24,000 bases of DNA from Dellaglioa kimchii (GCF_046115505.1 NZ_CP170737.1:15908-39907), one strand, 5' to 3'; counted from the first letter of the stretch, positions 7,189 to 19,585 are shown. Numbers and translations: made by a program. The notes: generated by a model from the sequence alone, not told the origin.

Positions 7189-7605
7189 ATGAAAAAAATT
7201 TATTTTTTATGTACAGGAAATTCTTGTCGCAGTCAAATGGCTGAAGGATATGCAAAAAAAATATTGCCGGCAAATGAGTTTCAAATCGAGAGTGCAGGGA
7301 TTGAAACTCATGGGTTAAATCTAAATGCTGTTAAAGTTATGGCTGAAGATGGAGTAGATATTAGTAGCCACTACTCTAAATTAATTGATCTAAATTATTT
7401 GAACACTTCAGATTTAGTTATTACTTTATGTGGTGATGCCAAGGATAAATGTCCTATGCTTCCCCCTCAAACCAAGAGTTTACACTGGCCTTTATCTGAC
7501 CCAGCGCAAGCCACAGGAACTTTAGAAGAACAACTACAAGAATTCCGTAAGGTTCGTGACGAAATTAAAAAATTAGTTACAAGTTTGAATAACTACGTTC
7601 ATTAA
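7189..7605 (+). CDS. arsC: arsenate reductase, thioredoxin-coupled LMW-PTPase type (pI258 ArsC type), 138 aa
   Basis: The catalytic P-loop is [13 protein letters not shown]. The downstream Cys pair context is [14 protein letters not shown]. An SD TAGGTGG lies upstream. No arsR, arsB or acr3 gene is adjacent. Confidence 0.9.
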
Positions 7606-7730
7606 TAAAAAAACGCCATATAGTGCCGCAGTAAAACAGTCCAATTAATTTATTGACTTCTAAGGAAAATACCAGGGCTTTGGTTATGAGCTAGATATGT
7701 GACTAGGCACTCACTAAAATGCCCTTCCAT

Positions 7731-7836
7731 TGAGGGACTATAATTATATAATGACCCCTCGAAAAGACTATTAAAACAGCCCCCATTATCTGACTAGTAG
7801 ATAATGGGGGCTGTTTTTTTGTTTAATGTTATAATA
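7731..7836 (-). repeat. copy A of a ~105-bp imperfect inverted repeat; includes a bidirectional terminator hairpin (7775-7815 plus a T-run to 7820)
   Basis: Its reverse complement aligns with 18144-18247 at about 70% identity by hand count. Conserved blocks are TATAACAT, CCCCCAnTATCTAC...AGATAnTGGGGGCT, TTTTCGAGGGG (11/11) and ATAGnCCCTC. It lies between the convergent arsC and the HigA-like gene. Confidence 0.7.
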
Positions 7837-7840
7837 GATC

Positions 7841-8125
7841 TTAAAATGCTGGACTGAATTGAATGGTCAAACGTTGGTTTGTTGCTTGGGCGATCTCAGA
7901 TAGTATTTTTGTTGAAGCATTCATCGAACCATTTTCAATGCGTGCAATCGTTGATTGTGGTTTACCAATCAAATTGGCAAATTCACGTTGGCTCAATCCC
8001 ATATTTGCACGAAGGTCACGAACTTTCACTGCTACCTCTAAATTAATATTTTCTTGCTCAACAATTTGTGCAAATTCAGGATTTTTTTTACTACGTTCAG
8101 CAACGTATGCATCAAGTTTACTCAT
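7841..8125 (-). CDS. XRE-family HTH antitoxin (HigA-like), 94 aa
   Basis: The HTH segment is LRANMGLSQREFANLIGKPQSTIARIENG. It overlaps the upstream toxin gene by 4 nt (ATGA) in toxin-first order, as in HigBA. Confidence 0.8.
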   Translation of the reverse strand: MSKLDAYVAERSKKNPEFAQIVEQENINLEVAVKVRDLRANMGLSQREFANLIGKPQSTIARIENGSMNASTKILSEIAQATNQRLTIQFSPAF

Positions 8126-8472
8126 TGATTTTCCTCCTTATTCAAATACTGACTGCGTCTATTCCGAGCGATTTTCTTTTCATTTTCAGGTGTCTTTTGC
8201 GTTTTTTTCGTGAAAGCGTTAGTAATAATGTATTGACTACCTTTGACTTGAAAGTAAAGAGCCCTTTGAATGTTTGAAGATCGTTTAGAACGAATTTCAT
8301 AGAGATTATTTTCTAGCTTTTTTACCCATAATTGTCTTTCCGCCACTAAGAGGCCATTATTTTCAATATTTTGAATGGTTGCAATTAATTTAGCAGCATC
8401 TTTATCAGGTAATTGATCTAAGAACTGTTCAAATTCAGCCCAATCGTAATAATCAAACTCAAATTTTTCCAT
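8122..8472 (-). CDS. RelE/ParE-superfamily toxin of the phage Gp49/HigB-like type, 116 aa
   Basis: The pattern ...VKKLENNLYEIRSKRSSNIQRALYFQVKGSQYIITNAFTKKTQKTPENEKKIA is typical of the Gp49-like (DUF891) HigB family. The gene is translationally coupled to the XRE antitoxin. Confidence 0.8.
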   Translation of the reverse strand: MEKFEFDYYDWAEFEQFLDQLPDKDAAKLIATIQNIENNGLLVAERQLWVKKLENNLYEIRSKRSSNIQRALYFQVKGSQYIITNAFTKKTQKTPENEKKIARNRRSQYLNKEENQ

Positions 8473-8478
8473 AACAAC

Positions 8479-8500
8479 ATGATAGCAGATGCGCTATCAT
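8479..8500. promoter_or_regulatory. perfect 8-6-8 palindrome ATGATAGC-agatgc-GCTATCAT between the divergent HigB-like and recombinase genes
   Basis: Read directly from the sequence. It lies 7 nt from the toxin start and 33 nt from the recombinase start. It could be a TA operator or a recombinase core-type site. Confidence 0.35.
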
Positions 8501-8532
8501 CAATCAAATTATTAACTTTAAAGGAGTAGCTA

Positions 8533-9123
8533 ATGGTGCAACAAATTGTCCTCCCCATCAAAGACTCCAACGTCTTAAAAATGGTGCAAGACACCTTATT
8601 AGATAGTTTTCGGGCGGGTCGCCGCAACTACACTATCTTTCAAGTTGGCAAAGCCACTCTACTGCGGGTGAGTGATGTGATGACGTTAAAGAAATCGGAT
8701 GTCTATAATCCCGATGGGTCTGTTAAAAACACGGCCTTTATTCATGATAAAAAGACAGGTAAAGCGAACACGTTATATTTAAAGCCCGTGCAACAAGACT
8801 TGTTGCAATATCATGATTGGCTAGTCCAACAGAATATCACTTCGGATTGGTTATTTCCCTCAACGTCCCATCCAGATCGACATATAACAGATAAGCAGTT
8901 TTATAAGGTGATGGCACGCGTTGGTGATCTATTAGGTATCAACTATCTAGGCACACATACGATGCGTAAAACAGGCGCTTACCGCGTCTATACACAGTCA
9001 AACTACAATATTGGTTTAGTCATGCACTTATTGAATCATTCGAGTGAGGCTATGACGCTTACTTATCTGGGGTTAGATCAAGCAAGTCGCGAAACAATGT
9101 TAGATCAAATTGATTTTGGGTAA
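8533..9123 (+). CDS. small tyrosine recombinase (phage-integrase family catalytic domain only), 196 aa
   Basis: Catalytic signature residues are present in LLRVSDV (Arg), GTHTMRKTGAY (His-x-x-Arg), LNHSS (His) and MTLTYLG (Tyr). An SD AAAGGAG lies upstream. Only about 45 aa precede the catalytic domain. Confidence 0.85.
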   Translation: MVQQIVLPIKDSNVLKMVQDTLLDSFRAGRRNYTIFQVGKATLLRVSDVMTLKKSDVYNPDGSVKNTAFIHDKKTGKANTLYLKPVQQDLLQYHDWLVQQNITSDWLFPSTSHPDRHITDKQFYKVMARVGDLLGINYLGTHTMRKTGAYRVYTQSNYNIGLVMHLLNHSSEAMTLTYLGLDQASRETMLDQIDFG

Positions 9124-9393
9124 TAACGCCAACTAATCTCCCTAAATTAGCACGTATTTGTTCATTTTGACGCCACTATGGAGGTATTTTTAATGACTAG
9201 GATTACTAAGGCACAATTAGACAACATCATTACACGTTGCCACCATCCGAGGTAATTGGTGCCCCATTGTCTGAAACTGCAAATAAAGGGTTGCTAGGTA
9301 ATACTTTTTGAGTCATAATTTTAGACGCTCCAATTTTTGAGTATTTGGTTTGTTTTTCACTAACAAAATATCATAACAAAGAGCTCCTATGGT

Positions 9394-9464
9394 TTTCACC
9401 CAACGGGTGAAAGCGCAAAACCCGCTGAAACGGTATTAACTTGCTGTTTCAGCGGGTTTTTGTT
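9394..9464 (+). other. two adjacent strong hairpins; the second is terminator-like
   Basis: The first is TTTCACCC-aac-GGGTGAAA (9394-9412). The second is AAAACCCGCTGAAAC-14 nt-GTTTCAGCGGGTTTT (9417-9460), followed by a T-rich run. Both lie just inside IS-end copy A. Confidence 0.5.
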
Positions 9465-9470
9465 TGTCTT

Positions 9471-9486
9471 GATGAATAATCCGGGT
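9471..9486 (-). repeat. IS1380-type terminal repeat, copy A (GATGAATAATCCGGGT)
   Basis: Its reverse complement ACCCGGATTATTCATC matches copy C at 15/16. It is preceded by a CTGAAAC...GTTTCAG hairpin like the one inside copy C. Confidence 0.5.
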
Positions 9487-9540
9487 ATTAAGTTCTACAC
9501 CATCTCACTTTTCTCGACCATAGAGCGTCTTTCTAGATAT

Positions 9541-9578
9541 CCCCGAACAGATTTACTCACCTGTTTGGGGTTTTCTTT
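9541..9578 (+). terminator. terminator-like hairpin
   Basis: CCCCGAACAG-10 nt-CTGTTTGGGG forms a 10-bp stem with one G-U pair and is followed by TTTTCTTT. Confidence 0.45.
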
Positions 9579-9745
9579 ACAAAAAAGTGTTTTTTGTCAG
9601 CAGGCGTGTTGGTAACCACTAAAAGTAACTCCCTAAGGACACCATTTTCGATGACGTAATATAACATATCGTTTCTTTGTATACATGGTTAGCTATTACA
9701 GGTCGACTCAATTAAAGGTGTTCTAAAAATATGATTTAAAATTTT

Positions 9746-9757
9746 ACCCGGATTATT
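9746..9757 (+). repeat. IS1380-type terminal repeat, copy B (12-nt core ACCCGGATTATT)
   Basis: It has the same 12-mer and the same orientation as copy C. An unidentified ORF tail (..STGKHPDALYSADLMNAAKEEAKHRGLFDLNNL*, stop 9866-9868) begins abruptly at this point. Confidence 0.45.
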
Positions 9758-9903
9758 TCTAACGAATCGACAGGCAAGCACCCTGATGCGCTATACTCTG
9801 CTGATTTAATGAACGCAGCTAAAGAAGAAGCTAAGCATCGAGGATTGTTTGACTTAAATAATCTATAACTGATTACCATATAACTAAATATCTAAAAAGA
9901 AAA

Positions 9904-9931
9904 ACGTCTTGAATATTCAAGGTGTTTTTTT
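9904..9931. terminator. bidirectional terminator hairpin
   Basis: ACGTCTTGAATATTCAAGGTGT (9904-9925) is flanked by an A-rich run on the left and T6 on the right. It lies directly 3' of the VIT gene stop (9934-9936, minus strand). Confidence 0.55.
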
Positions 9932-9933
9932 GT

Positions 9934-10419
9934 CTACAAATAATAATTCAGTAAGATACCAACGCCATAAGCAACAATTGCAGCGACGTACCCGACAGAA
10001 AGTGTGCGTAGAATTTCTGTTCTTACTTTCTGCTCTGACAGGTTGGCCTTCACCCAGCCTAGCAACGCCAAAGAGACACCGACGATGACAAAGGCGATTG
10101 GAAAGGCGATGTCTTTGTCGTGAATGAGCGCATTTGTAATTAAGTAGGCACCTAGTGGAATTAAACCGAAGACGTTAAACGAAATGAATGTCGCGATACC
10201 AGCTGCCAATGCTTTACTTTTTGATTGATTGTTATCCGATGTTGCTGACAGGTAGGCACCGGCCCCCATTGAAAAGCCATCGGCTAATAAGTTTGAGAAT
10301 CCCAAAATGATGATAACGATGTTTGAAACGTTACCACCGACCGATCCAGCAACGACTGCGAACGTCGTGATAATGCCATCTAAGCCACCGTAGACGATGG
10401 CTGAAACGTGTTTTTTCAT
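9934..10419 (-). CDS. VIT1/CCC1-family (Fe/Mn) transporter-like membrane protein, short form, 161 aa
   Basis: The N-terminal signature is AIVYGGLDGIITTFAVVAG, followed by LADGFSMGAGAYLS and several TM segments. There is no ferritin-like N-domain. Confidence 0.8.
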   Translation of the reverse strand: MKKHVSAIVYGGLDGIITTFAVVAGSVGGNVSNIVIIILGFSNLLADGFSMGAGAYLSATSDNNQSKSKALAAGIATFISFNVFGLIPLGAYLITNALIHDKDIAFPIAFVIVGVSLALLGWVKANLSEQKVRTEILRTLSVGYVAAIVAYGVGILLNYYL

Positions 10420-10532
10420 TTATTTTCTCCAGTTTCTCTCAGTGGTGATAAAACCAATATATAAGAAAAAAGTGACCAATTATCGGTAATTTCACATCGG
10501 ATTAAAAATGTTTCAAAAACGAAACAAATAAA

Positions 10533-11040
10533 ACCCGGATTATTCATGCACTAAATTTTTAACCACAGCTAAATCAGTAAAATACGATAAAACACCTTGA
10601 AACTGCCAGTACCTTGGCACAGTTTCAGGGTATTTTTTCGATTGAGCGTTTTTTGAGAAAAATAGGAACACTAAAGCCAGCCAGATTTTGCTATTTTTTT
10701 GAAAATCTACTTCGTTGTTTTATTGCCACAAAGCATTTAGTCGTTCCCAAGCTCGCCAGAACAGACCATCGAATTGTTCTTGGATGCGGCTATCTAACGT
10801 CAAAATCACCTTGCGGGCGTGCTTAGTGACACACGTCCACCGATTTTTAACAAACGGTCTCGAAAGGTATTGATTGTCCACGATTGTTGCTGGTCGTCCA
10901 ACGCAATACTCTTCATCAACCGCATCAAGTTTGATGCAATTACTGAGATCCACATGCGCGCTTGCGGTAAACACGGACGATGTCTTTTTGTGGAAGACTT
11001 AGGTTAGTGACGATGAACTGTCTACCGCCATGTTCATCAT
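10533..11040 (-). mobile_element. 3' remnant of an IS1380-family element: decayed transposase C-terminus plus terminal repeat copy C (ACCCGGATTATTCATG, 10533-10548)
   Basis: The minus-strand pieces GGRQFIVTNLSLPQKDIVRVYRKRA, HVDLSNCIKLD, ARMWISVIASNLMRLMKSIAL..TFRDRLLKIGGRV and TKHARKVILTLDSRIQEQFDGLFWRAWERLNALWQ* follow the order of ISEcp1-like transposase C-termini, but they are spread over three frames (at least 3 frameshifts). The element would end with CC, as described for IS1380-family ends. Confidence 0.55.
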
Positions 11041-11076
11041 TTAAAACGATATCCTTATTTTTAAGTATAAATCGAC

Positions 11077-11769
11077 TTAACTTGATACAAATAATAATTC
11101 ATCTAAATCAAATATCTCAACACATTTTTGGGTATGCCGTTTAATTAGACCTCTCTCTTCCAATGATGAGAACTTACGGCTTATTGTTTCTGGAGTTGTC
11201 CCCAGGTAAGTAGCCAAATCTTTTTTTGACATGGGTAAAGTCACATAAGTATGGTTTTTTTCATCTTCAACATTTTCTGATAGAAAATCAATAATTCGAG
11301 CTTCAACAGGTTCAGTACTGACTTGCACAGTTTGTTTTTCTGATAACTGTAGCCGTTTTGTAATATCCGATAATATTCGTCGCATGATTTCTGGATAGAG
11401 ATCTAAATATTGATCTAAATTCTTTTTATGAATCCTACAAATACTTGTTTCCGATATTGCTTCAGCATAATTCGAATGATAACTTTCAGTCTGTAAAATA
11501 GCAACTTCCCCCATAAAATCACCAGGATGTAGGATGCGTATAGTTTGCTCACGACCAGACTCACTTAGGCTATAAATACGTACACGTCCATTGTTTATGA
11601 TATATAATGTGTCATCTTTATCACCAAACCTAAATAATAGCTCATTCTTTACGTATTGTACTTCATTCGCTGATTGAGCAATTAGACGCATTTGTTCATC
11701 ATTGAGATGATTGAAAATCGGCACTAAACGTATACAATCTACATGACTATGATGATTATGGTTTGCCAT
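11077..11769 (-). CDS. flp: FNR-like protein (FLP), Crp/Fnr-family regulator, 230 aa
   Basis: It has a cNMP-binding-like beta-roll (RIYSLSESGREQTIRILHPGDFMGE). The C-terminal HTH recognition helix is TPETISRKF (the E--SR motif of FNR). The N-terminus reads MANHNHHSHVDCIRLVPIFNHL. Cys12 and Cys111 follow the two-Cys pattern described for Lactobacillus casei FLP. Confidence 0.85.
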   Translation of the reverse strand: MANHNHHSHVDCIRLVPIFNHLNDEQMRLIAQSANEVQYVKNELLFRFGDKDDTLYIINNGRVRIYSLSESGREQTIRILHPGDFMGEVAILQTESYHSNYAEAISETSICRIHKKNLDQYLDLYPEIMRRILSDITKRLQLSEKQTVQVSTEPVEARIIDFLSENVEDEKNHTYVTLPMSKKDLATYLGTTPETISRKFSSLEERGLIKRHTQKCVEIFDLDELLFVSS

Positions 11770-11964
11770 ACCGTTTTCCTCCTAATTAATCGTTATCTAT
11801 AAATTGTCCATTTTTTAAGTATAAGATCATCTTTTTTCGTTGTATTTTATGTGGTTAATCTCACACCAGCTTGCCCCAGAGGATAGCGTTCTGCATGACA
11901 TGCTCTCACTGAAGGTGATCATACAATGATAAATTGCCATGTCACGGCGTGACCCATTGGTGCA

Positions 11965-12507
11965 ATGTATCATGTACCAAAACAAAAAACCACTAGGGTA
12001 TACAATATCGATACAGATTATGTAAATCAATTACATAGCATAGATAAAAAAGTAGAATACCACCATGGAGAACATGATAAACCGTATTTGGGTATCATAT
12101 TAGAAATTAACGGTACAAATTATTTTGTTCCTCTTTCATCACCAAAGCCGAAGCATAATCGAATGTCTGAAAATATCACTTTTAAAAAGATAGAAAAAGA
12201 TGGACACTTATTTGCTGTTTTAAATATTAACAATATGATCCCTGTTCCACTGAATTTATGTAAAGAAATTGACATTGATAATATTTCAGATACTTACTAC
12301 AAACACTTATTAAATCAGGAATACTTTATTTGCAAGCGAAAGAAAAGAGACATTATGAAGTCAGCCGGCATAGTTCATAAATGTATTTGTGAGGAGCCTG
12401 AAAGCCATGAAAAAATGTTGAGCCGAGAAAATAAGATTTATGAAGAAAGCAATTTTAATATTCTTTTTCGGTTGATTCTGATTCGAGTGATTATGGTCTT
12501 TATCTGA
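11965..12507 (+). CDS. ToxN/AbiQ-family type III toxin-like endoribonuclease; ends may not be native
   Basis: PYLGIILEINGTNYFVPLSSPKPKHNRM and VLNINNMIPVP match the AbiQ/ToxN core pattern (GI-LEI-G--Y-aPL-SPK-kH; MIP). There is no SD before ATG 11965. About 10 extra N-terminal residues are present. The last ~15-30 codons are antisense to a separate minus-strand gene start. Confidence 0.65.
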   Translation: MYHVPKQKTTRVYNIDTDYVNQLHSIDKKVEYHHGEHDKPYLGIILEINGTNYFVPLSSPKPKHNRMSENITFKKIEKDGHLFAVLNINNMIPVPLNLCKEIDIDNISDTYYKHLLNQEYFICKRKKRDIMKSAGIVHKCICEEPESHEKMLSRENKIYEESNFNILFRLILIRVIMVFI

Positions 12508-12516
12508 TTTTGACAT
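12361..12516 (-). pseudogene. 5' remnant of a metal-transporter gene (CDF/CzcD-like start) downstream of the ArsR-family gene
   Basis: A strong SD GGAGG (12524-12528 on the plus strand, as CCTCC) precedes ATG 12516. The product begins MSKSDKDHNHSNQNQPKKNIKIAFFINLIFS, a His/Asn-rich tail followed by a TM1-like segment. It then loses similarity and stops after 51 aa. It overlaps the toxN-like 3' end. Confidence 0.35.
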
Positions 12517-12557
12517 TTAAAAACCTCCTAAGTTTGTATGCTACATACTAATTGGTT

Positions 12558-12872
12558 TTATTTTTCTAATTCATTAACATGAGTTAAGACTCGTTCGAGA
12601 ATACTAAAAACATGAAGGTCATCTAAACTGTAAAGCATACTTTTTCCTTCTCTTCTTGATTTCACTAAGCGTGCGTCTTTCAACGTTTTTAATTGATGAG
12701 AAATAGCGGACTGTTCCATGTCCAGAGAAATAGCGATATTTCCAACACTACACTCTTTTTTCTGTAAAAGAAAGAGAACCGACAATCGTGTAGGATCACT
12801 AATCACCTTAAATAGTTTGCTTATTGACAGAATAGATCCTTTATCGATTGGAGAAGTTGTTTTTATATCCAT
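12558..12872 (-). CDS. ArsR/SmtB-family metalloregulator with an alpha5 (Zn/Co/Ni-type) site, 104 aa from ATG 12872
   Basis: The HTH reads DPTRLSVLFLLQKKECSVGNIAISLDMEQSAISHQLKTLKDARLV. The C-terminal DLH-x10-H-x2-E (DDLHVFSILERVLTHVNE) fits the alpha5 DxHx10Hx2E site of CzrA/SmtB-type sensors. There is no CVC alpha3 motif. The tracked ORF starts at TTG 12935, so the start is uncertain. Confidence 0.85.
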   Translation of the reverse strand: MDIKTTSPIDKGSILSISKLFKVISDPTRLSVLFLLQKKECSVGNIAISLDMEQSAISHQLKTLKDARLVKSRREGKSMLYSLDDLHVFSILERVLTHVNELEK

Positions 12873-12979
12873 AGTGTTTTTATTCCTTTCATATGACCTT
12901 TCGTTCATATCTATATTACCATATGAGCGAAACAATGCTAATCTTTTGTTTATAAAAGAGAAGTGGCGTTCTCTTTATC

Positions 12980-13042
12980 TTGACAAAATTTATATAGCGA
13001 TATAAAATGAGTATACAAACATATGATTAATTAGTCATATGT
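12980..13042 (+). promoter_or_regulatory. sigma70-type promoter (TTGACA-17-TAAAAT) followed by a 12-12 inverted-repeat operator
   Basis: TTGACA lies at 12980-12985 and TAAAAT at 13003-13008. The palindrome ACATATGATTAA|TTAGTCATATGT (13019-13042) matches at 11/12, which is ArsR/SmtB operator architecture. It lies between the divergent arsR-family and ATPase genes. Confidence 0.65.
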
Positions 13043-13170
13043 AAAGTGGATTCATTACGATTTACTTTTGGAATAAACGAAAGGAGTCAGAAATAGCAGA
13101 AATTTATGTGATTCAAGAAGTAAATGATGGAAAACAAAGGAATTATAAATTATATAGGGAGGCAATAGAA

Positions 13171-15102
13171 GTGAAAACTATCCAAGAACAACAGTCTCAA
13201 GAAAAGCATAATCATAATCACAACCACGATCACGACCATGATCATGGGAAAATGCCAGTCGTTTTGTACTTTGTTGGTTTAGCATTAGCAGTGATTGCTC
13301 TATTTTTGAATGAAGATTATCAGTTGGTACAAAATGTTTTGTTCTCAATCGCTACAATCAGTGCCGGGTATCACGTTATTCTTCTTGAAGGCCTTGGAGA
13401 AACAATTGAGAATTCAAAAGCACAAAAAAAGTTCATACCTAATTCTCATATTTTAATGGGATTAGCGGCAATTGGAGCTTCTTTGATGGGGAATTTTTGG
13501 GAAGGAACATTATTGATTCTTATTTTTTCTGGCGCACATTTTTTGGAAGATTATGCAGAAGGAAGAAGCAAACGAGAAATAACGAAATTACTCGAAATGA
13601 ATCCAACGACTGCCCGGTTAATCCTGCCTGATGGTAGTACAAAAAATGTGGATGTCAGTGAATTAAAAGTGGGAGATCAACTTCAAGTGTTGAATGGCGA
13701 TCAAGTACCTATTGATGGCGTCATTTTGTCTGGATCTACATCCATTGATGAGTCGTCTATTAATGGAGAAAGTATCCCGAAAGAGAAATCCAAAGGAGAT
13801 GGCGTCTTCGGGAGTACAATCAATGGAACAGGTACCTTCACGATGAAAGTCACCAAAGAAAACAAAGATACAGTATTTTCAAAAATTTTACAATTAGTGA
13901 ATCAGAACCAAGATAACCAAACAAAAGCTGCGAGTATTATCCAAAAATTTGAACCGAAATATGTCACAGTTGTTTTAATTGCCATTCCTCTATTCATGTT
14001 ATTGGCTCCTTTTCTACTTGATTGGACATGGTCACAAAGTGTCTATAGAGGATTGGTCCTTTTAGTTGCAGCTTCACCGTGTGCTTTAGCAGCAGCTACT
14101 GTCTCGGCAACGCTATCGACGACTTCTAATTTAGCCAAAAAAGGAGTCCTTTCAAAAGGTAGTTCTTACCTGTCTCAATTAGCCGATATTAAAGCAATTG
14201 CATTTGATAAGACGGGCACCTTGACCAAAGGAAAACCTGAAGTAACCAATTATTATTTTGCTGATTCCGTGAACGAAGAAAACATGATTGATATCGTAGT
14301 AGCTCTTGAAAAAGAATCCAATCACCCCTTAGCAGATGCTATTCTAAGAAAGTTTGAGCAAAAAAACAAACTAACTATTGAAGTAGAAAACCAAATTGGT
14401 AAAGGATTGACGGGAGATTACAAAGGGAGAAATTATCGTATAGGAAAACCGACTTCGTTTGATGATGTTTCAGATGAATATAGTCGTTTAAATAATGAAT
14501 GGGCATCAGAAGGTAAGACAGTCGTATACGTAGCAGTAGATGAAGAGGTTATAGGCCTTATTGCCCTTATGGACGTTCCGAGTGAATATGCTAAAGAAAC
14601 CATTGAATATTTTAGGAAACAAGGTATACACACCACATTAATTACTGGTGACTCAGAAATGACGGGAAAAGCGGTTGCTAAACAATTAGGAATAGATGAA
14701 GTGATTACGAATGTCATGCCGGAAGACAAATCCAGAATTATAGACGAACAAAAAGAAAAATACGGCGTGACCGCCATGGTTGGAGACGGTGTAAATGATG
14801 CTCCTGCTCTTGTTAATGCAGATGTGGGAATCGCTATGGGAGATGGGACTGATGTGGCAGTAGAGGTATCTGATTTAGTTTTAATGCAAAACAATTTATC
14901 TAAATTGGTACAATCTCATAATATTTCTTCGAAAATGAACCGTGTTATTTGGCAGAATATTATTTTTTCAATGGCCGTTGTTGCTTTTTTAATTGTCGTT
15001 AGTTTCTTAGGCTTAACGGATATTGCAATCAGTGTCATTATTCATGAAGGAAGTACTTTGGTTGTTATTTTGAATGGACTTCGATTGCTAAAGGCAGTCT
15101 AA
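13171..15102 (+). CDS. P1B-4-type (SPC motif) heavy-metal ATPase with a His-rich N-terminus, 643 aa from GTG 13171
   Basis: Motifs are the N-terminal HNHNHNHDHDHDHG, the TM motif AASPCALAAAT, FDKTGTLT, GDGVNDAPAL and HEGSTLVVILNGLRLL. The actuator loop reads SSINGESIP (NGE where TGE is usual). GTG 13171 has the SD GGGAGG 8 nt upstream. The tracked start at 13108 has no SD within range. Confidence 0.85.
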   Translation: MKTIQEQQSQEKHNHNHNHDHDHDHGKMPVVLYFVGLALAVIALFLNEDYQLVQNVLFSIATISAGYHVILLEGLGETIENSKAQKKFIPNSHILMGLAAIGASLMGNFWEGTLLILIFSGAHFLEDYAEGRSKREITKLLEMNPTTARLILPDGSTKNVDVSELKVGDQLQVLNGDQVPIDGVILSGSTSIDESSINGESIPKEKSKGDGVFGSTINGTGTFTMKVTKENKDTVFSKILQLVNQNQDNQTKAASIIQKFEPKYVTVVLIAIPLFMLLAPFLLDWTWSQSVYRGLVLLVAASPCALAAATVSATLSTTSNLAKKGVLSKGSSYLSQLADIKAIAFDKTGTLTKGKPEVTNYYFADSVNEENMIDIVVALEKESNHPLADAILRKFEQKNKLTIEVENQIGKGLTGDYKGRNYRIGKPTSFDDVSDEYSRLNNEWASEGKTVVYVAVDEEVIGLIALMDVPSEYAKETIEYFRKQGIHTTLITGDSEMTGKAVAKQLGIDEVITNVMPEDKSRIIDEQKEKYGVTAMVGDGVNDAPALVNADVGIAMGDGTDVAVEVSDLVLMQNNLSKLVQSHNISSKMNRVIWQNIIFSMAVVAFLIVVSFLGLTDIAISVIIHEGSTLVVILNGLRLLKAV

Positions 15103-15286
15103 AGAATGATTGCACAACTTCAAATTAATCGAGTAATAGAGATAATTAAGGATTACACTACATTTTTTATCTCTATTACTTGTTTATATTTATCTAGATG
15201 TTCAAAGTCAAAATGATATATCAACCATACTCTTGTGGCGCGGGTTGAATATAAGATACATGAAATTGTATAAAATCGTGTATCGA

Positions 15287-15314
15287 GAATCCTATATCTA
15301 TAGGGTTCTTTTTT
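15287..15314 (+). terminator. terminator-like hairpin
   Basis: GAATCCTATA-tc-TATAGGGTTC (one G-U pair) is followed by T6. It lies ~185 nt after the ATPase stop. Confidence 0.5.
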
Positions 15315-15330
15315 GATAACCCCCTCCAAT

Positions 15331-15364
15331 ACATGATTTCGTGGTATACTGAATGAAATCATGT
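15331..15364. promoter_or_regulatory. 10-14-10 inverted repeat ACATGATTTC...GAAATCATGT enclosing an extended -10 (TGGTATACT)
   Basis: Read directly from the sequence. TATACT lies at 15345-15350, preceded by TG. The repeat ends 31 nt before the recombinase start. Confidence 0.35.
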
Positions 15365-15394
15365 ATCGTTTTTTTGAGAGGAGAGCCATTTTCA

Positions 15395-15946
15395 ATGACG
15401 TATAACGTCCAACCATTAAGAACGCAGCAAGAAATCAACGACTTTTTATTTTGTTTAAGGCGCAATAAAAACGCCGAACGCGACGTTTTTCTGTTTTTGA
15501 TCGGCATTAATAGCGGTTTACGCATGTCTGATATCGTGAAATTAAAGAAAAAAGACGTGATTTCCTCGAAAAACCCACGTATTGTGGAGCAAAAAACCGG
15601 AAAAACACGCATTTTATATTTAAGCAGCCTGCAGGAGTTGATCCAGGACTACACGAAAGACCTGAAGCCAGAAGATTATTTGTTTCCCAGTACTAAAGGC
15701 GGTCATTTAGAAGTCAATACGGTCTATCAGATGTTTCAAAAGGTCGCCGCATTATTAGATCGGGACGATATCGGCACGCACACGCTGCGCAAGACCTTTG
15801 GTTACCATTACTACAAGAAAACCAAAGACGTGGCCACACTCATGGAAATCTTCGGTCACAGCAGTGAAAAAATCACGAAGCGCTATATCGGGATTAATGA
15901 AGACGAAATTAGCGAGACGTTATTAAATTTTAGACTCGGTTTTTAA
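15395..15946 (+). CDS. small tyrosine recombinase (catalytic domain only), 183 aa, paralogous in type to 8533-9123
   Basis: Signature residues are in GLRMSDI (Arg), GTHTLRKTFGY (HxxR), FGHSS (His) and ITKRYIG (Tyr). ATG 15395 is preceded by GAGAGGAGAG. The tracked start at 15353 lacks an SD. Confidence 0.85.
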   Translation: MTYNVQPLRTQQEINDFLFCLRRNKNAERDVFLFLIGINSGLRMSDIVKLKKKDVISSKNPRIVEQKTGKTRILYLSSLQELIQDYTKDLKPEDYLFPSTKGGHLEVNTVYQMFQKVAALLDRDDIGTHTLRKTFGYHYYKKTKDVATLMEIFGHSSEKITKRYIGINEDEISETLLNFRLGF

Positions 15947-15973
15947 ATCTATATTAATTAAGGAGAAAGTGTA

Positions 15974-16165
15974 ATGAAAAAAATGAGTGCATATGTAAAA
16001 AATATAATTCTTACTCATCCGGTATTATCAATTATTATTCTTTTAGTTATTCCAATTTTTGTGTACTTAATCGCTCTTGTTATTGGATTGAAGTCAATAT
16101 TTGAGACAGATTTTAAGAGACATTCAGAACCGCGTTTACCTTCCACAGCTCAAATAAATCATTAA
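15974..16165 (+). pseudogene. N-terminal fragment of a small membrane-protein gene interrupted by the IS3-family element
   Basis: A good SD AAGGAG is present and there is one clear TM segment (PVLSIIILLVIPIFVYLIALVIGL). From 16102 onward the reading frame runs inside the IS terminal repeat, so the last ~21 codons are IS-derived. Confidence 0.4.
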
Positions 16166-16205
16166 TCGCGATTAATAACTTATTTGAACCCTGGAAAGCA
16201 TTAAA

Positions 16206-17135
16206 TCAGGCGGCCATTTGGCTCGTAAGTGTTGCAATTTCAACTTGTAAGGGGGTCTGGTAGCCCAGTGAACTATGAATTCTCTTCCTATTGTAGAAAG
16301 CATGCACATATTCAAAAAGGACGGCAGCAGCAGTTTCATAATCTTCAAAGACCGGCACTGGATAAACACATTCCTTTTTGAGGGAAGCGTGAAAGGATTC
16401 CATTGGCGCATTATCATACGGACAACCCTTACGGCTGTATGAGTGGCGGATATGTAGCTCAGTTAAACGTTGATTGTAATCATCGCTGGTATACTGTGAT
16501 CCTAAATCCGTATGGATAATCAGGTCCCCAGTAATGGTTCGATTTTTAACCGCGCTTTCAAGGGTCTTTAAGACTAAATCAGTATCCATCTTTTTTGAGA
16601 ACGAATAACCGATAATCCGTCGTGAGTGCAGGTCCATGATGGTTGATAAGTAACACCAGCCATTACGCTTCGTTTGAATATAGGTCATATCAGCGGTCCA
16701 TTTTTGATTTAAACCAGTGGTCGAGAAATCCTGCTTAAGCAAGTTGGGACGCTGTTCAACCTTGGTTTTGGAAGCCGAAGCCGCTTTCCACTTATTGACG
16801 GTAACGGAGTGGATATCCAGTTCCTTCATGAGCCGGGAAATCCGTCGTGGACTGCACCGAAGCTGCAGTGGTTGAAGTTCCAGATTCAATTCATGGTGGA
16901 TCTTCATAACACCGTATCGCTGCTTAAATTCCGCAAAGATCCGCAGAATCCGTTGTTTCAAGTCCGCATCTTCGGCCCGGCGTTTTGAAGGTTTGGGGGA
17001 TCGATAACGATAATACTGAGCTCTGGAAACACCGAGGATTCGGCACATCTTGGTTACCTGGTGGTGATGGCTTTCTTGGTGAATGTAATCAAAGATATTG
17101 GTTACTTCTGCGCAAGGAAGCCCAGGGCTTTTTTT
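16206..17135 (-). CDS. IS3-family transposase OrfB (DDE integrase-like domain), expressed as an OrfAB fusion by -1 frameshifting
   Basis: WTADMTYIQT..., HTDLGSQYTS and NAPMESFHASLKKE carry the D, D and E motif contexts of IS3 transposases. The frame is open from the slippery site (KKSPGLPCAEVTNIFDYIHQESHHHQVTKMCRILGVSRAQYY). The first ATG is at 17048. Confidence 0.85.
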   Translation of the reverse strand, partial: KKSPGLPCAEVTNIFDYIHQESHHHQVTKMCRILGVSRAQYYRYRSPKPSKRRAEDADLKQRILRIFAEFKQRYGVMKIHHELNLELQPLQLRCSPRRISRLMKELDIHSVTVNKWKAASASKTKVEQRPNLLKQDFSTTGLNQKWTADMTYIQTKRNGWCYLSTIMDLHSRRIIGYSFSKKMDTDLVLKTLESAVKNRTITGDLIIHTDLGSQYTSDDYNQRLTELHIRHSYSRKGCPYDNAPMESFHASLKKECVYPVPVFEDYETAAAVLFEYVHAFYNRKRIHSSLGYQTPLQVEIATLTSQMAA

Positions 17136-17353
17136 AGGATTTCGTTCTCCTCAGACAGCGAAGCCAGTCGCTTTTCCATCGCTTTGATTTCGTCTGGCGA
17201 TTTACCGGATTGAGTTTTGGCCTGGCCCTGGATCCACTTATGAACTGTTGAATAGCCAATGCCATATTCTCTGGCCAGTTGAGCAGCTGATTCGCCTTGC
17301 TTATATAGGTTGATAATGTTTTGTTTGAATTCTTTGTCGTAACGAGTTGGCAT
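17102..17353 (-). CDS. IS3-family transposase OrfA (HTH), 83 aa
   Basis: The product reads MPTRYDKEFKQNIINLYKQGESAAQLAREYGIGYSTVHKWI, followed by a leucine-zipper-like tail LASLSEENEILKKALGF. The gene ends just after the A7 site. Confidence 0.85.
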   Translation of the reverse strand: MPTRYDKEFKQNIINLYKQGESAAQLAREYGIGYSTVHKWIQGQAKTQSGKSPDEIKAMEKRLASLSEENEILKKALGFLAQK

Positions 17354-17444
17354 GTAAAAATTCCTTCCTTTTGAGAGACGATTTATTCATTATACCCTCT
17401 CTTAAAAGTTGTCTCAGGAATCAGCTTACATCCACCTTAAAAAA

Positions 17445-17484
17445 TTGATTTTTAGTACAAATTAAAGTACAATATTAAGTACAA
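17445..17484 (+). promoter_or_regulatory. promoter (TTGATT-17-TACAAT) overlapped by three 12-bp-phased AGTACAA repeats, a likely antitoxin operator
   Basis: TTGATT lies at 17445-17450 and TACAAT at 17468-17473. AGTACAA occurs at 17454, 17466 and 17478. GTAC-core repeats are the type of operator described for YefM/Axe-class antitoxins. Confidence 0.55.
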
Positions 17485-17500
17485 TGAAAGGGTGGTAAAT

Positions 17501-17779
17501 ATGACATTAGCACTAACACAGAGCGATTTTCGCGCTAACCTAAAAAAATATTTAGATCAAGTTAATGACGAAGACGAAACCGTTTATATTGCTCGTTCAA
17601 ATAGTCGCGCAGTAGCAATCGTTTCACAAGAAAAAATGGACTGGCTAGAACGAGCATTAAAAGCTAAAGAAGGTTCGTTAGAATATGCAATTGCACGTGA
17701 TCAGTTAATTAAACGCCATGTTTTACCTGACGATGAAATTGTTGAATCAGATGATGATTATTGGGGTCAGTTTAAATAA
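17501..17779 (+). CDS. Phd/YefM-family antitoxin, 92 aa
   Basis: It reads MTLALTQSDFRANLKKYLDQVNDEDETVYIARSNSRAVAIVSQEKMDWLE and has an acidic C-terminus (VESDDDYW). ATG 17501 has the SD AAAGGGTGG. The stop overlaps the toxin start (TAATG). Confidence 0.8.
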   Translation: MTLALTQSDFRANLKKYLDQVNDEDETVYIARSNSRAVAIVSQEKMDWLERALKAKEGSLEYAIARDQLIKRHVLPDDEIVESDDDYWGQFK

Positions 17780-18135
17780 TGAAAAAACTAAGGTTTAAAC
17801 CACGTGCAACCTTTAATGCTGATCTAAAACGGTTAGCCAGTTTAGATAAATCTATTATTGATGAAGTTCGAGCAGCCATTGACCTGTTGCTTGAGCAACA
17901 ACAATTACCATCAGAATTTGAAGATCATGAGCTTAATCGGCGAATGAGCGGTTATAATGAATTTCACTTACGAGATACCCCGAAAAACAAAACACCAAGC
18001 GAAACTAACGATGTCCTGGTGGTTTATACGATTGATACAGATGAACTAGTCTTAATTGGCATTCGAGTCGGATCGCATGATCGTTTATTTCCTGGTCAAA
18101 ATCGTTCCAAAAGGTATCGAAAAAATGACGAATAA
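17779..18135 (+). CDS. YafQ/RelE-family mRNA interferase toxin, 118 aa
   Basis: The pattern FNADLKRL...LPSEFEDHELNRRMSGYNEFHL...VLVVYTIDTDELVLIGIRVGSHDRLF matches the YafQ-type pattern (DH-L-G---G--E-H; R-GSH--LF). An extra loop (RDTPKNKTPSETND) is present. Confidence 0.75.
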   Translation: MKKLRFKPRATFNADLKRLASLDKSIIDEVRAAIDLLLEQQQLPSEFEDHELNRRMSGYNEFHLRDTPKNKTPSETNDVLVVYTIDTDELVLIGIRVGSHDRLFPGQNRSKRYRKNDE

Positions 18136-18143
18136 GAGAAGTC

Positions 18144-18247
18144 ATTTATAACATATAAAAACAAATAACCCCCAATATCTACATTATAGATATTGGGGGC
18201 TATTCTTTCAATGTTTTCGAGGGGCGATTTATCACAAATAGACCCTC
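18144..18247 (+). repeat. copy B of the ~105-bp imperfect inverted repeat; includes a bidirectional terminator hairpin (18169-18199)
   Basis: It aligns with the reverse complement of 7731-7836. The hairpin is CCCCCAATATCT-7 nt-AGATATTGGGGG, followed by TTTTCGAGGGG and a second GAGGG...CCCTC hairpin. It lies between the convergent YafQ-like and reductase genes. Confidence 0.7.
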
Positions 18248-18253
18248 TTGTTG

Positions 18254-19585
18254 TTAAATTAATGTTCTAATTTTATATGCTAAACCAGGGAAAGCCATTA
18301 CCATCTTTTCTTTCCAAACCTCTGGATCAACATCAATTGCCATAACAGGAATTAGTGAATTGATATCATCTACTGCTGTTTGGCTAATTTCAGCAGCGCC
18401 CACGAGATGATTTTGCTTGTCAAAGACTAATGATAATCGTGCGTGATCATCTGTTCCAGCATAAAAAAAGTCACCTTGAGTAATATCAATATCTTTAATT
18501 GAATAATTACTGTCTTCCTTTGCTTTATCAATACTAATTCCAGCTTGAGCGAGTTGGGGGAATGTGAACGTAACGGTTCCAATTACTGGGTACCTAAGAG
18601 GTTCAGTTGTTTTATTAGTAAGTAAGGCACTTAAGTAGTCTGCTTCAAACTGTGCCGTAGAGGTTAATGCTGGTGCGGTTTTATCAACAATATCGCCCAT
18701 TGCGTAAATGTTATTTGCTGATGTGGTCAAATATTTATCAACTTTAATTCCGCGGTTGCTGTACTCTACACCAGCATTATCAAGTTTCAATGCATTAATT
18801 TCAGGAACTCTACCACTGGCATTAATAACTTTATCAAAAGTGCCAAGGTTGCCGTTAGCTGATTGAACCTCATAGCCAGTTTGTGCTTCGGTAACAGCTG
18901 TAACATTTGTGTTAAATATAAAATTAATACCAAGTGAGTTTTTCATTTCATCAACTAACTGATGAACGTGTTGGCTGTAAAATCCCTCTAGTGGTTGGCC
19001 GGATCGGACAATAACTGTTACTTTAACCCCGGCAGCAGACAACAATGTAGCAAATTCCATACCAACGTAACCACTTCCGATAATTGCGACGTTCTTTGGA
19101 GTATCTTCGAGTTCAAAAAGGTTAGTACTAGTAAGTAGGTACTCGTGGCCAGGAATGTTAAGAGGATGCGGCTTTTTTCCGGTTGCGATTACAAAATTAT
19201 CAGCAGTGATTTTTTTATTATTAACTTCAATGGTATGTTGATCAACAAATGATGCTTCACCCTTGATGGTAGTCGCACCCAGGCCTTCATACATACTTTG
19301 CATATTATTTAGGAATGACGCCATAGCCTTATTCTTTTGCTGAATAAGTTCTTTCCAGTCAAGCTTAGCTGGTTGAGTAATTCCCTTACCTTGCAAACGC
19401 ATTGAAGTTAAGGTTGCTCGTGCTGCTCCTTCTAAGAAAATCTTGGGTTCGCAGCCTTCGTTAGGGCAAATTCCGCCAAACCGATTCTTTTCAACAACCG
19501 CGATTTTCTTTCCGCTATTCTGCATTCCCAATAGGAAACGATAAACTGATGGCCCACTGCCAATAACAACGTAGTCAAACTTCAT
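18254..19585 (-). CDS. class I pyridine-nucleotide-disulfide oxidoreductase, glutathione-reductase-like, 443 aa
   Basis: The FAD fold is DYVVIGSGPS. The redox-active CxxxxC is GGICPNEGCEPK. The NAD(P)H fold is VAIIGSGYVGMEF. The C-terminal region reads VMAFPGLAYKI where GR and LipDH have the HP---E dyad, so the His-Glu pair appears to be missing. Confidence 0.8.
   Translation of the reverse strand: MKFDYVVIGSGPSVYRFLLGMQNSGKKIAVVEKNRFGGICPNEGCEPKIFLEGAARATLTSMRLQGKGITQPAKLDWKELIQQKNKAMASFLNNMQSMYEGLGATTIKGEASFVDQHTIEVNNKKITADNFVIATGKKPHPLNIPGHEYLLTSTNLFELEDTPKNVAIIGSGYVGMEFATLLSAAGVKVTVIVRSGQPLEGFYSQHVHQLVDEMKNSLGINFIFNTNVTAVTEAQTGYEVQSANGNLGTFDKVINASGRVPEINALKLDNAGVEYSNRGIKVDKYLTTSANNIYAMGDIVDKTAPALTSTAQFEADYLSALLTNKTTEPLRYPVIGTVTFTFPQLAQAGISIDKAKEDSNYSIKDIDITQGDFFYAGTDDHARLSLVFDKQNHLVGAAEISQTAVDDINSLIPVMAIDVDPEVWKEKMVMAFPGLAYKIRTLI

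Follow-up and report, generated by a model that had tools for sequence, protein, structure and literature searches.

Acinetobacter plasmids carry pdif sites, which are 28-bp asymmetric Xer sites of 11-6-11 layout used by the chromosomal XerC/D recombinases; resolution sites that adjoin a recombinase gene include the IRS upstream of tnpI in Tn4430, the res sites of the Tn3 family and Sin resH, and the integron platform comprises intI, attI and cassettes that end in attC. Nearer to the DNA analyzed here are the pUCL287-like int-antitoxin-toxin modules, in which a 195-amino-acid (aa) integrase is encoded beside a type II toxin-antitoxin (TA) pair on the opposite strand. The report on pRC12/pRC18 shows this int-antitoxin-toxin block (PMC7117683), and that on pMN1 of Latilactobacillus sakei places a "putative bidirectional transcriptional terminator" where the 3' ends of dsrLS and orf2 meet (PMC5702455). 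The same arrangement of integrase and TA genes is found at 7841-9123 of a 24,000-nt stretch of Dellaglioa kimchii DNA (GCF_046115505.1, NZ_CP170737.1:15908-39907; hereafter the window, with positions counted from its first letter), in which two non-coding blocks of about 105 bp face each other 3' of two TA operons. Here, we show that both blocks are members of a widespread family of non-coding units in plasmids of lactic acid bacteria, and we suggest that the unit is probably a conserved bidirectional terminator, combined with a promoter in one of its two subtypes, which borders modules made of a variable gene slot and a small integrase gene and, as a by-product, would provide a seam for module exchange.

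Two inverted copies of a non-coding unit

The left copy (7731-7836, plus strand) and the reverse complement of the right copy (18144-18247) are identical in 81 of 108 columns (75%) of a local alignment with a score of 68. The scores of 2000 dinucleotide-preserving shuffles averaged 17.1 (sd 2.5, maximum 31; z = 20.7), the highest score among 890 other 104-nt windows of the same sequence, taken on both strands, was 26, and blastn inside the window returned the pair with E = 6e-10. An earlier note on this DNA had proposed that the two stretches are homologous in inverse orientation, and the computed alignment bears this out at the same positions.

We refer to the left copy read on the plus strand and the right copy read on the minus strand as orientation A, in which both copies contain, in this order, GAGGG, 19 nt, CCCTC-GAAAA, a linker, AGCCCCCAwTATCT, 7 nt, AGATAwTGGGGG, a T-rich run and ATGTTATAA. 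The 5' segment GAGGG-19 nt-CCCTC, hereafter hp2, lies at 7732-7760 on the plus strand (with TATAAT in its AT-rich 19 nt, and followed by the linker at 7761-7777) and at 18247-18219 on the minus strand, and the stretch CCCCTCGAAAA (7755-7765 and 18224-18214) is identical at 11 of 11 positions. Hairpin 1, AGCCCCCA[T/A]TATCT-7 nt-AGATA[A/T]TGGGGG, follows at 7778-7812 (arms 7778-7791 and 7799-7812, loop GACTAGT at 7792-7798; 7773-7820 with its A/T tracts, the T-run being 7814-7820) and at 18201-18167 (arms 18201-18188 and 18180-18167, loop ATAATGT at 18187-18181), while ATGTTATAA is found at 7827-7835 and 18153-18145. All blocks that the earlier note had named, including the 11-nt identity, are thus present in both copies. 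The homology, which it had set at 5-8 nt from the TA-operon stop codons, lies 5 nt from that of the HigA-like gene (7841-7843) on the left and 8 nt from that of the YafQ-like gene (18133-18135) on the right. The other edge of the right copy, absent from that note, is 6 nt from the stop (18254-18256) of a FAD oxidoreductase gene. Both copies stand between convergent genes, in the order arsC(+)/unit/higA(-) on the left and yafQ(+)/unit/oxidoreductase(-) on the right.

A unit family in plasmids of lactic acid bacteria

When the two copies were compared by blastn with 72,556 PLSDB plasmid records, a check that the earlier note had recommended, the unit was found to recur in hundreds of them: the left copy matched 732 records at 1225 places and the right copy 643 records at 1323 places, with up to 8 places in one record. 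The hosts belong to Lactococcus, Enterococcus, Leuconostoc, Lactiplantibacillus, Weissella, Pediococcus, Latilactobacillus, Levilactobacillus and Listeria, and 3 of 50,697 phage records also gave a match. A scan for the hairpin only (CCCAWTATCT-N7-AGATAWTGGG; one genome per species) yielded 118 loci, nearly all from Lactobacillaceae and mainly on small contigs; since a family hidden Markov model (HMM; nhmmer) found 141 copies spanning at least 80 of the 116 model positions, the hairpin almost never occurs without the whole unit. By this model the left unit extends over 7731-7841 (plus strand, model positions 4-114, 111.7 bits) and the right unit over 18140-18248 (minus strand, model positions 4-113, 84.6 bits). 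Many copies are located at contig ends, which is to be expected of an assembly-breaking repeat. The 5' start of the consensus, at TAGGG, is sharp, with the information content rising from near zero to near its maximum within 1-3 nt in 105 distinct copies.

The family falls into two subtypes. Subtype 1, to which the left copy belongs, has ATTATCT arms and the linker GACTATTAAAAC, and subtype 2, which includes the right copy, has AATATCT arms and the linker CATTGAAAGAAT or CATTGTTAAAAT; a chimeric unit in L075 (L numbers denote loci) has a 5' end like that of the window's right copy and a remainder like the left one. Back-to-back pairs of units with one common AGGGG...CCCCT, in the order hairpin, hp2, inverse hairpin, were observed at L001:11203-11377 and L005:21299-21473 as well as in L122 and L087, so that the 5' segment can serve both orientations. 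As a further observation, the gene order of L001 (27,706 bp), L003 (23,195 bp) and L006 (15,841 bp) recurs at a fixed offset, so that these records resemble head-to-tail multimers, complete or partial, and much shorter records of the same species (13,846, 11,616 and 9,423 bp) were among the matches beside them; these three are probably long-read assembly concatemers, true multimers being possible.

The family is apparently undescribed so far. Literature searches on integrases, TA systems and resolution sites brought up the int-TA module (PMC7117683, PMC5702455) and no description of the unit itself; a keyword search of these two reports found no mention of a repeated non-coding family, an orientation rule, a variable slot or a module joint. 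A full-text search for the 11-mer CCCCTCGAAAA led to unrelated papers only. Rfam gave no match in the window at gathering score, and at permissive thresholds the best match was rliE (27 bits against a cut-off of 90), among terminator-like noise below threshold.

Hairpin 1 as a putative bidirectional terminator

Hairpin 1 has 14-bp arms and a 7-nt loop in all full copies, and this GC-rich stem-loop is directly followed by a T/U tract on both strands. A terminator scan flagged it on both strands of both copies (7773-7817 on either strand; 18205-18163 on the minus and 18169-18199 on the plus strand). The predicted folding energies of the two RNA strands were -41.8 and -41.7 kcal/mol for the left hairpin (z = -8.3 and -7.8) and -42.0 and -31.6 kcal/mol for the right one (z = -7.7 and -5.6).

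Pairing of this hairpin is kept through compensatory changes. Across 113 distinct copies it is the sole helix predicted by RNAalifold, with 98.7% of cells paired and two-sided changes at 6 of 18 pairs, and its covariation score was reached by none of 500 shuffles, with the caveat that most stem positions are invariant. The A-T/T-A difference between the two window copies, which the earlier note had read as compensatory, proved to be so across these copies (A-U in 71, U-A in 40, broken in 2); it tracks the subtypes and represents essentially one evolutionary event. The search for further compensatory pairs that the note had called for revealed independent events at other stem pairs, where C-G is replaced by U-A in 4 copies and G-C by A-U in 16. 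The loop is variable in subtype 1 (at least 20 different 7-mers, GACTAGT in the window's left copy), and in subtype 2 it reads ATAATGT in 47 units and the reverse complement, ACATTAT, in 12, which corresponds to a flipped hairpin.

The position of the unit is also that of a terminator. Like the two window copies, which lie at the 3' ends of convergent genes, family members have a downstream gene on the opposite strand in 69 of 124 cases and an upstream gene on the same strand in 66 of 126. In pMN1 we found a subtype-2 unit at 7983-8078, between dsrLS (+) and orf2 (-), followed by the genes for HigA and HigB (-) and then by an integrase gene (+). According to the pMN1 report, reverse transcription PCR on RNA did not yield an amplicon carrying the dsrLS 3' end and downstream regions (PMC5702455), which is indirect evidence of termination there. 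At several int1-like genes that lack the unit, other terminator hairpins fill this position.

Orientation towards a small tyrosine recombinase gene and a variable slot

Among the units found by the hairpin scan, 85 had at least 2.1 kb of downstream sequence and 104 could be tested upstream, integrase genes within 1.5 kb being counted. A gene for a tyrosine recombinase of about 195 aa lies downstream on the same strand in 46 of the 85 and on the opposite strand in none; upstream, integrase genes occur on the same strand in 0 of 104 and on the opposite strand in 4 of 104. Distances from unit to integrase cluster at 87-107 nt (11 cases) and at 685-717 nt (40 cases), the latter class including the 692 nt between the window's left unit and int1, a co-oriented gene for a 196-aa tyrosine recombinase (8533-9123, plus strand; Pfam Phage_integrase). 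An independent set, in which selection was by the integrase, comprised 80 metagenome loci with a gene product at least 91% identical to int1; 67 of them had enough upstream sequence. A unit lies at most 1.6 kb upstream in 49 of these 67, co-oriented in all 49, and is lacking in 18; the distances group at 29-108, 236-389, 614-723, 855-893 and 1228-1404 nt.

The int1 protein comprises the catalytic domain only, with weak matches to XerA, XerC/D and FimB-type invertases that are all far below the family cut-offs. Members of its family are present in 1274 plasmid records, whose genus spectrum is parallel to that of the unit. Unit identity and integrase nucleotide identity are correlated over 4278 pairs (Spearman 0.54), and near-identical integrases can adjoin quite different units; unit and integrase are old neighbors, at times recombined apart. 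A conserved non-coding element was also sought downstream of the integrase gene, and none was found there.

Between unit and integrase gene lies a slot of variable content. On the opposite strand it holds TA pairs with YafQ (two families), MazF/PemK (two families) or HigBA, and 69 of 124 units have such an opposite-strand gene (YafQ, MazF/PemK or HigA) ending within about 10 nt; co-oriented single genes in the slot encode AbiV/HEPN proteins, HNH and GIY-YIG nucleases, a SpoIIM-like membrane protein, a sulfate permease or a methyltransferase. Other units lie 87-107 nt upstream of a recombinase gene without any TA pair, precede AbiV, HNH and GIY-YIG genes, or are orphans. In L126-L205 the slot often carries anti-phage or nuclease genes (AbiV/HEPN, HNH, GIY-YIG) besides TA pairs, and it behaves like a small defense or addiction hotspot. 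In the window, the left slot is filled by the HigA-like (7841-8125; Pfam HTH_3) and HigB/Gp49-like (8122-8472; Pfam Gp49) genes on the minus strand. The earlier note's suggestion of a terminator or small-RNA module that travels 3' of TA operons holds insofar as the unit is terminator-like and abuts TA operon ends; it is too narrow because the tighter link is to the downstream same-strand tyrosine recombinase, TA pairs being one of several fillings of the slot.

The right unit adjoins a TA pair on the plus strand, YefM-like (17492-17779) and YafQ-like (17779-18135) by Pfam, with no integrase gene after it. The same block of unit and YefM/YafQ genes is present in L022, L057, L103 and L073, where a co-oriented integrase gene follows. 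In the window, homology to the TA module starts at 17435, which corresponds to a position about 8 nt before the int start codon of L057, and this is the edge of an IS3-family element (16083-17434, minus strand, 99.3% identical to L092, inverted repeats 16084-16120 and 17398-17434). Hence, the right module has lost its integrase gene to IS3.

Two observations concern the sequences around the integrase promoter. Within the 60-nt gap between higB and int1, overlapping divergent promoter-like sites surround the palindrome ATGATAGCAGATGCGCTATCAT (8471-8507), an arrangement by which HigA could co-regulate higBA and int1. In the leader between unit and int of L006 (7514-7671), L007 (12697-12795) and other loci of the direct class, an AT-rich short tandem repeat, AATTATTTATTT, varies in copy number, which accounts for unit-to-int distances of 87, 88, 90, 95, 99, 106 and 107 nt; it may be a slippage tract affecting integrase expression.

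Units as joints of mosaic plasmids

The flanks of both window copies are combined differently in other plasmids. On the outer side of the left copy is an arsC-like cargo gene (7189-7605, plus strand; Pfam LMWPc), which reads towards the unit; the block of arsC and unit is common to L002 and L099, with homology running into the unit as far as 7817 and 7846, respectively. On the inner side, L003, L049, L030 and L109 match the unit together with higBA and int1, from 7729-7744 onward, and L099 has the arsC-unit-int order of the window without higBA. On the right, the cargo gene upstream of the unit in orientation A encodes a FAD/NAD(P) oxidoreductase (18254-19585, minus strand; Pfam Pyr_redox_2). 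L085 matches this gene and the unit as far as the T-run, L094 and L075 switch homology inside the 5' half, L022 matches the whole unit and the TA pair, and L033 and L017 are homologous only from the hairpin base onward; in L085, L094 and L075 the oxidoreductase gene is joined via units to other partners.

Among 176 distinct copies, 93 of 94 pairs that have only the upstream flank in common lose homology at model positions 5-114, and 797 of 802 pairs that have only the downstream flank in common gain it at model positions 0-75, the junction never falling in the 40 nt on either side of the unit. The observed junctions lie variously at the 5' edge, within the hp2 loop or the linker, and past the T-run, the true position being blurred by alignment run-on. 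This spread would fit homologous exchange within a short common sequence better than a single site-specific crossover.

The 10.3-kb interval between the copies is itself composite. None of the PLSDB plasmids holds at least 80% of 7700-18300. The best match block, 7733-11801 (unit, HigBA, int1, VIT and Crp/Fnr), starts exactly at the 5' edge of the unit, and a separate block covers 12425-15958 (cadC, cadA, int2); since the interval splits into independent blocks, it is a mosaic, in which each copy points into its own TA-integrase module and the two therefore face each other. That the copies are the ends of a mobile or invertible 10.3-kb segment, as the earlier note had offered for consideration, is not supported by these blocks, and homologous inversion between the two copies, another of its options, is unlikely given that they are of different subtypes and 75% identical, with longest exact runs of about 11-12 nt. 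What survives of both options, taken more broadly, is that units across plasmids are joints of module exchange.

The proposed role of the unit

The 3' end of subtype 1 is TGnTATAAT, a -10 element of the extended type, whose reverse complement the earlier note had listed as TATAACAT; in the left copy it reads TGTTATAAT (7827-7835, plus strand) and points to higA and int1. The motif TGnTAWAAT lies directly past the T-run in 41 of 66 subtype-1 units, and co-oriented loci have a ribosome-binding site and start codon 16-42 nt past the unit. Subtype 2 has TTGnnA and TATAAT at 17-nt spacing, with the -10 inside the hairpin loop, in 44 of 69 units; the corresponding TTGAAA-17 nt-TATAAT of the right copy (18183-18211, minus strand) agrees with a promoter at 11 of 12 positions. 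The region as a whole has 46 promoter-like matches against 41.7 in shuffles, i.e., no excess.

Given the structure, the gene context and the orientation, we propose that hairpin 1 with its A/T tracts forms the core of the unit and would end transcription from either flank, that of the cargo gene as well as that of the opposite-strand TA operon. In subtype 1, the extended -10 past the terminator, facing outward, would drive the slot gene and the recombinase gene beyond it. The unit would thereby mark the outer border of a "slot plus integrase" maintenance module, and because about 100 bp of the same type stand at many module borders, it would supply portable homology for swapping plasmid modules. 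In the window, the left copy would represent the border between arsC and HigBA-int1, and the right copy that between the oxidoreductase gene and YafQ/YefM, whose integrase partner has been lost to IS3.

Several observations weigh against this proposal. The 45-nt 5' half is conserved as strongly as the hairpin, yet superfluous for a terminator: in hp2, AGGG and CCCCT are at least 90% conserved in the 113 copies, with an AT-rich stretch between them, and this AGGG...CCCCT half is left unexplained by the terminator model. Moreover, the stem arms are near-invariant in sequence beyond what pairing demands, which exceeds the need of a terminator and would be in keeping with protein recognition. Where HigBA fills the slot, the extended -10 points antisense into higA, and int1 has a promoter-like site of its own at 8471-8500, so a promoter role of the extended -10 may be vestigial there. 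Additionally, the breakpoint histogram blurs the crossover point, as alignments run on into the common unit.

An RNA helix formed by hp2 was considered and rejected: RNAalifold did not predict it, no covariation was found at any of its four core pairs across the 113 copies, and the pairs flanking these are mostly open.

Alternative explanations

The 5' half would find a place if the unit were a cis-acting recombination site of the small plasmid tyrosine recombinase, with hairpin 1 as the core and AGGG/CCCCT as accessory arms, and with a role in multimer resolution and integrase-driven module exchange. We consider this candidate function unlikely, even though several features agree with it. The 14-7-14 geometry suits the core of a tyrosine recombinase site and, as far as geometry goes, has the inverted arms around a 6-8-bp spacer that such a core requires; the arms are near-invariant and the spacer variable (at least 20 7-mers in subtype 1), and the consensus contains, by eye, four similar ATAGnCCCY-like motifs. 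However, the spacers of the two window copies are not identical (GACTAGT and ATAATGT), and together with one difference in an arm this would preclude mutual recombination under the usual spacer-identity rule; L005 has a full unit (11459) and a partial copy (~24860) with the loop ATAATGT and the orientation in common. The conserved T/A tracts, too, are accounted for by termination and not by recombination. The orientation link to the integrase gene is strict (46 of 85 co-oriented downstream and 0 opposite; 49 of 67 in the integrase-chosen loci), units of the direct class lie immediately upstream of the integrase gene and overlap its promoter region, and no other conserved non-coding element follows that gene. 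Nevertheless, no unit lies within 1.6 kb of 18 of the 67 int1-like genes, and L002 and L003 carry units with no tyrosine integrase listed in the PLSDB gene table, which is incomplete. Module junctions do fall in the unit, but they appear scattered over the 5' edge, the hp2 loop, the linker and the end of the T-run instead of meeting at one crossover. Several copies per plasmid stand beside TA modules, in the manner of pdif modules (PMC6449649, PMC13141974), and the authors of the pMN1 report speculated about integrase-mediated module exchange (PMC5702455).

It is still more doubtful that the unit encodes or shapes a small RNA. Such an RNA, of 65-90 nt, might run from the hp2 stem through an A-rich single strand to the terminator hairpin and derive from the 3' untranslated region of the cargo gene or from the TATAAT of hp2; small RNAs typically have this layout of 5' stem, AU-rich linker and terminator, conservation of the 5' half is not accompanied by coding potential, and 66 of 126 units have a same-strand gene upstream, whose end is often a few nt from the unit. 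Yet hp2 shows no covariation, its TATAAT has neither a conserved -35 nor a TG motif upstream, the hexamer being often ATTTTT or TATAAC, and no Rfam family reaches threshold. In subtype 2 the RNA might instead be an antisense transcript, running from the hairpin-embedded TTGAAA-17-TATAAT through the toxin gene towards the integrase gene. The 11 of 12 promoter matches in the right copy and the like arrangement in 44 of 69 subtype-2 units are in line with this, but promoter-like matches are at shuffle level (46 vs. 41.7), and in 12 units the flipped loop (ACATTAT) places the -10 on the other strand.

That the two copies are the ends of a mobile or invertible 10.3-kb segment, or that the unit is a self-transposing element resembling a miniature inverted-repeat transposable element, is very improbable: inverted copies do bracket two recombinase genes, the 5' edge is sharp to 1-3 nt in 105 different contexts and the 5' GGGTCTATAAT weakly resembles, by eye, the reverse complement of the equally AT-rich 3' TATAATAGACC, but no plasmid holds at least 80% of the interval, which splits into unrelated blocks, the copies are of different subtypes, their polarity to neighboring genes is fixed and they lie snug against stop codons, unlike random insertions, no transposase is associated, and among 209 loci there was no empty site, nor was any target duplication found, duplications not having been tested for systematically.

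Two further candidates were discarded. An oriT or single-strand origin is at odds with several copies per plasmid, with about half of the subtype-2 plasmids being non-mobilizable and with a polarity that follows the integrase and not a relaxase. A comparison by eye of the hairpin with Firmicutes dif and XerS sites gave chance-level AT-rich matches only.

Other features of the window

A second strong terminator-like hairpin (9417-9460; 19 pairs, 8 of them G-C), unrelated in sequence to the unit, is situated in a non-coding stretch of about 800 nt between int1 and the VIT-family gene. Positions 11965-12507 hold a gene for a toxin of the ToxN family (Pfam ToxN_toxin, E = 2e-40), and the plasmid-conserved block ends just before it, at 11801; a search of 11700-12100 with the tandem-repeat program TRF found no ToxI-like repeat array upstream, and the gene may be an orphan or part of a rearranged type III TA system.

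The cadC-cadA-int2 block (12425-15958), which ends just past the int2 stop codon, is 95-99% identical in large plasmids of Enterococcus faecium and in plasmids of Lacticaseibacillus and Ligilactobacillus. Its integrase, int2, belongs to a different family of small integrases, with 766 plasmid records mainly from Enterococcus and Bacillus. Just upstream of int2 (15285-15352) we noted a palindrome followed by TAGGGTTCT...GATAACCCCCTC and by TGGTATACT, an extended -10-like motif. The hp2-like motif in this region (15296-15325) was dismissed as a general feature, since it is absent before three int2 homologs (43-59% identity), and its resemblance to AGGG...CCCCT of the unit may be due to chance.

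Implications

Plasmids of lactic acid bacteria and enterococci are mosaic and carry fermentation traits, metal resistance and antibiotic resistance (e.g., poxtA, fexB and tet genes in L007). A unit of about 100 bp marks seams of this mosaic at more than 1,000 plasmid loci; it can serve in annotation as a landmark of the border between cargo and slot-integrase module, it accounts for the breaks of short-read assemblies at its sites, and it gives a handle on the swapping of TA and anti-phage genes (AbiV, HNH, GIY-YIG) beside a small putative integrase. If the integrase acts on the unit, the two would form a new one-slot system of gene capture and module exchange in Lactobacillales plasmids, comparable to pdif modules but Gram-positive, or to an integron reduced to a minimum, whose recombination core is at once a bidirectional terminator. 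Otherwise, the unit would be a regulatory element that doubles as portable recombination homology.

Comparison with known systems

In its one variable slot by a tyrosine recombinase gene, often filled with a TA pair, and in the structured site at the far end of the insert, the unit system resembles an integron. It differs in having one slot and no array, in the co-orientation of the unit with the integrase gene and in the lack of an attC-like site for each gene; in the window, the integron-integrase model TIGR02249 was not among the matches of int1 (196 aa), int2 scored 29.9 against its cut-off of 265, and a repeated attC-like site was not detected. As in Acinetobacter pdif/dif modules, several short conserved sites per plasmid stand at the borders of small modules, often with TA pairs, that recur beside different neighbors (PMC6449649, PMC13141974). 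Unlike pdif sites, the unit has for its core a hairpin of symmetric 14-7-14 layout with terminator tracts, the candidate recombinase is encoded on the plasmid, the breakpoints are not fixed and the orientations of the units do not alternate in L005 and L006. The unit resembles the IRS of Tn4430 with its TnpI, res and resH in its length of about 90-120 bp, in its place immediately before a small recombinase gene, whose promoter it overlaps, and in its composition of an inverted core and further motifs; in contrast to these, many copies of the unit are far from integrase genes, and a quarter of the integrase genes have no unit nearby.

The closest likeness is to intrinsic bidirectional terminators, with which the unit shares a GC-rich stem of at least 14 bp, a short loop, a U-tract on both strands, a place between convergent genes and compensatory pairing. 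Ordinary terminators are, however, not conserved in sequence across genera, whereas the unit is a 100-bp family found at more than 1,000 plasmid loci, and to the parts of a terminator it adds a conserved 45-nt 5' segment, a fixed polarity to the integrase gene and, in one subtype, a putative promoter.

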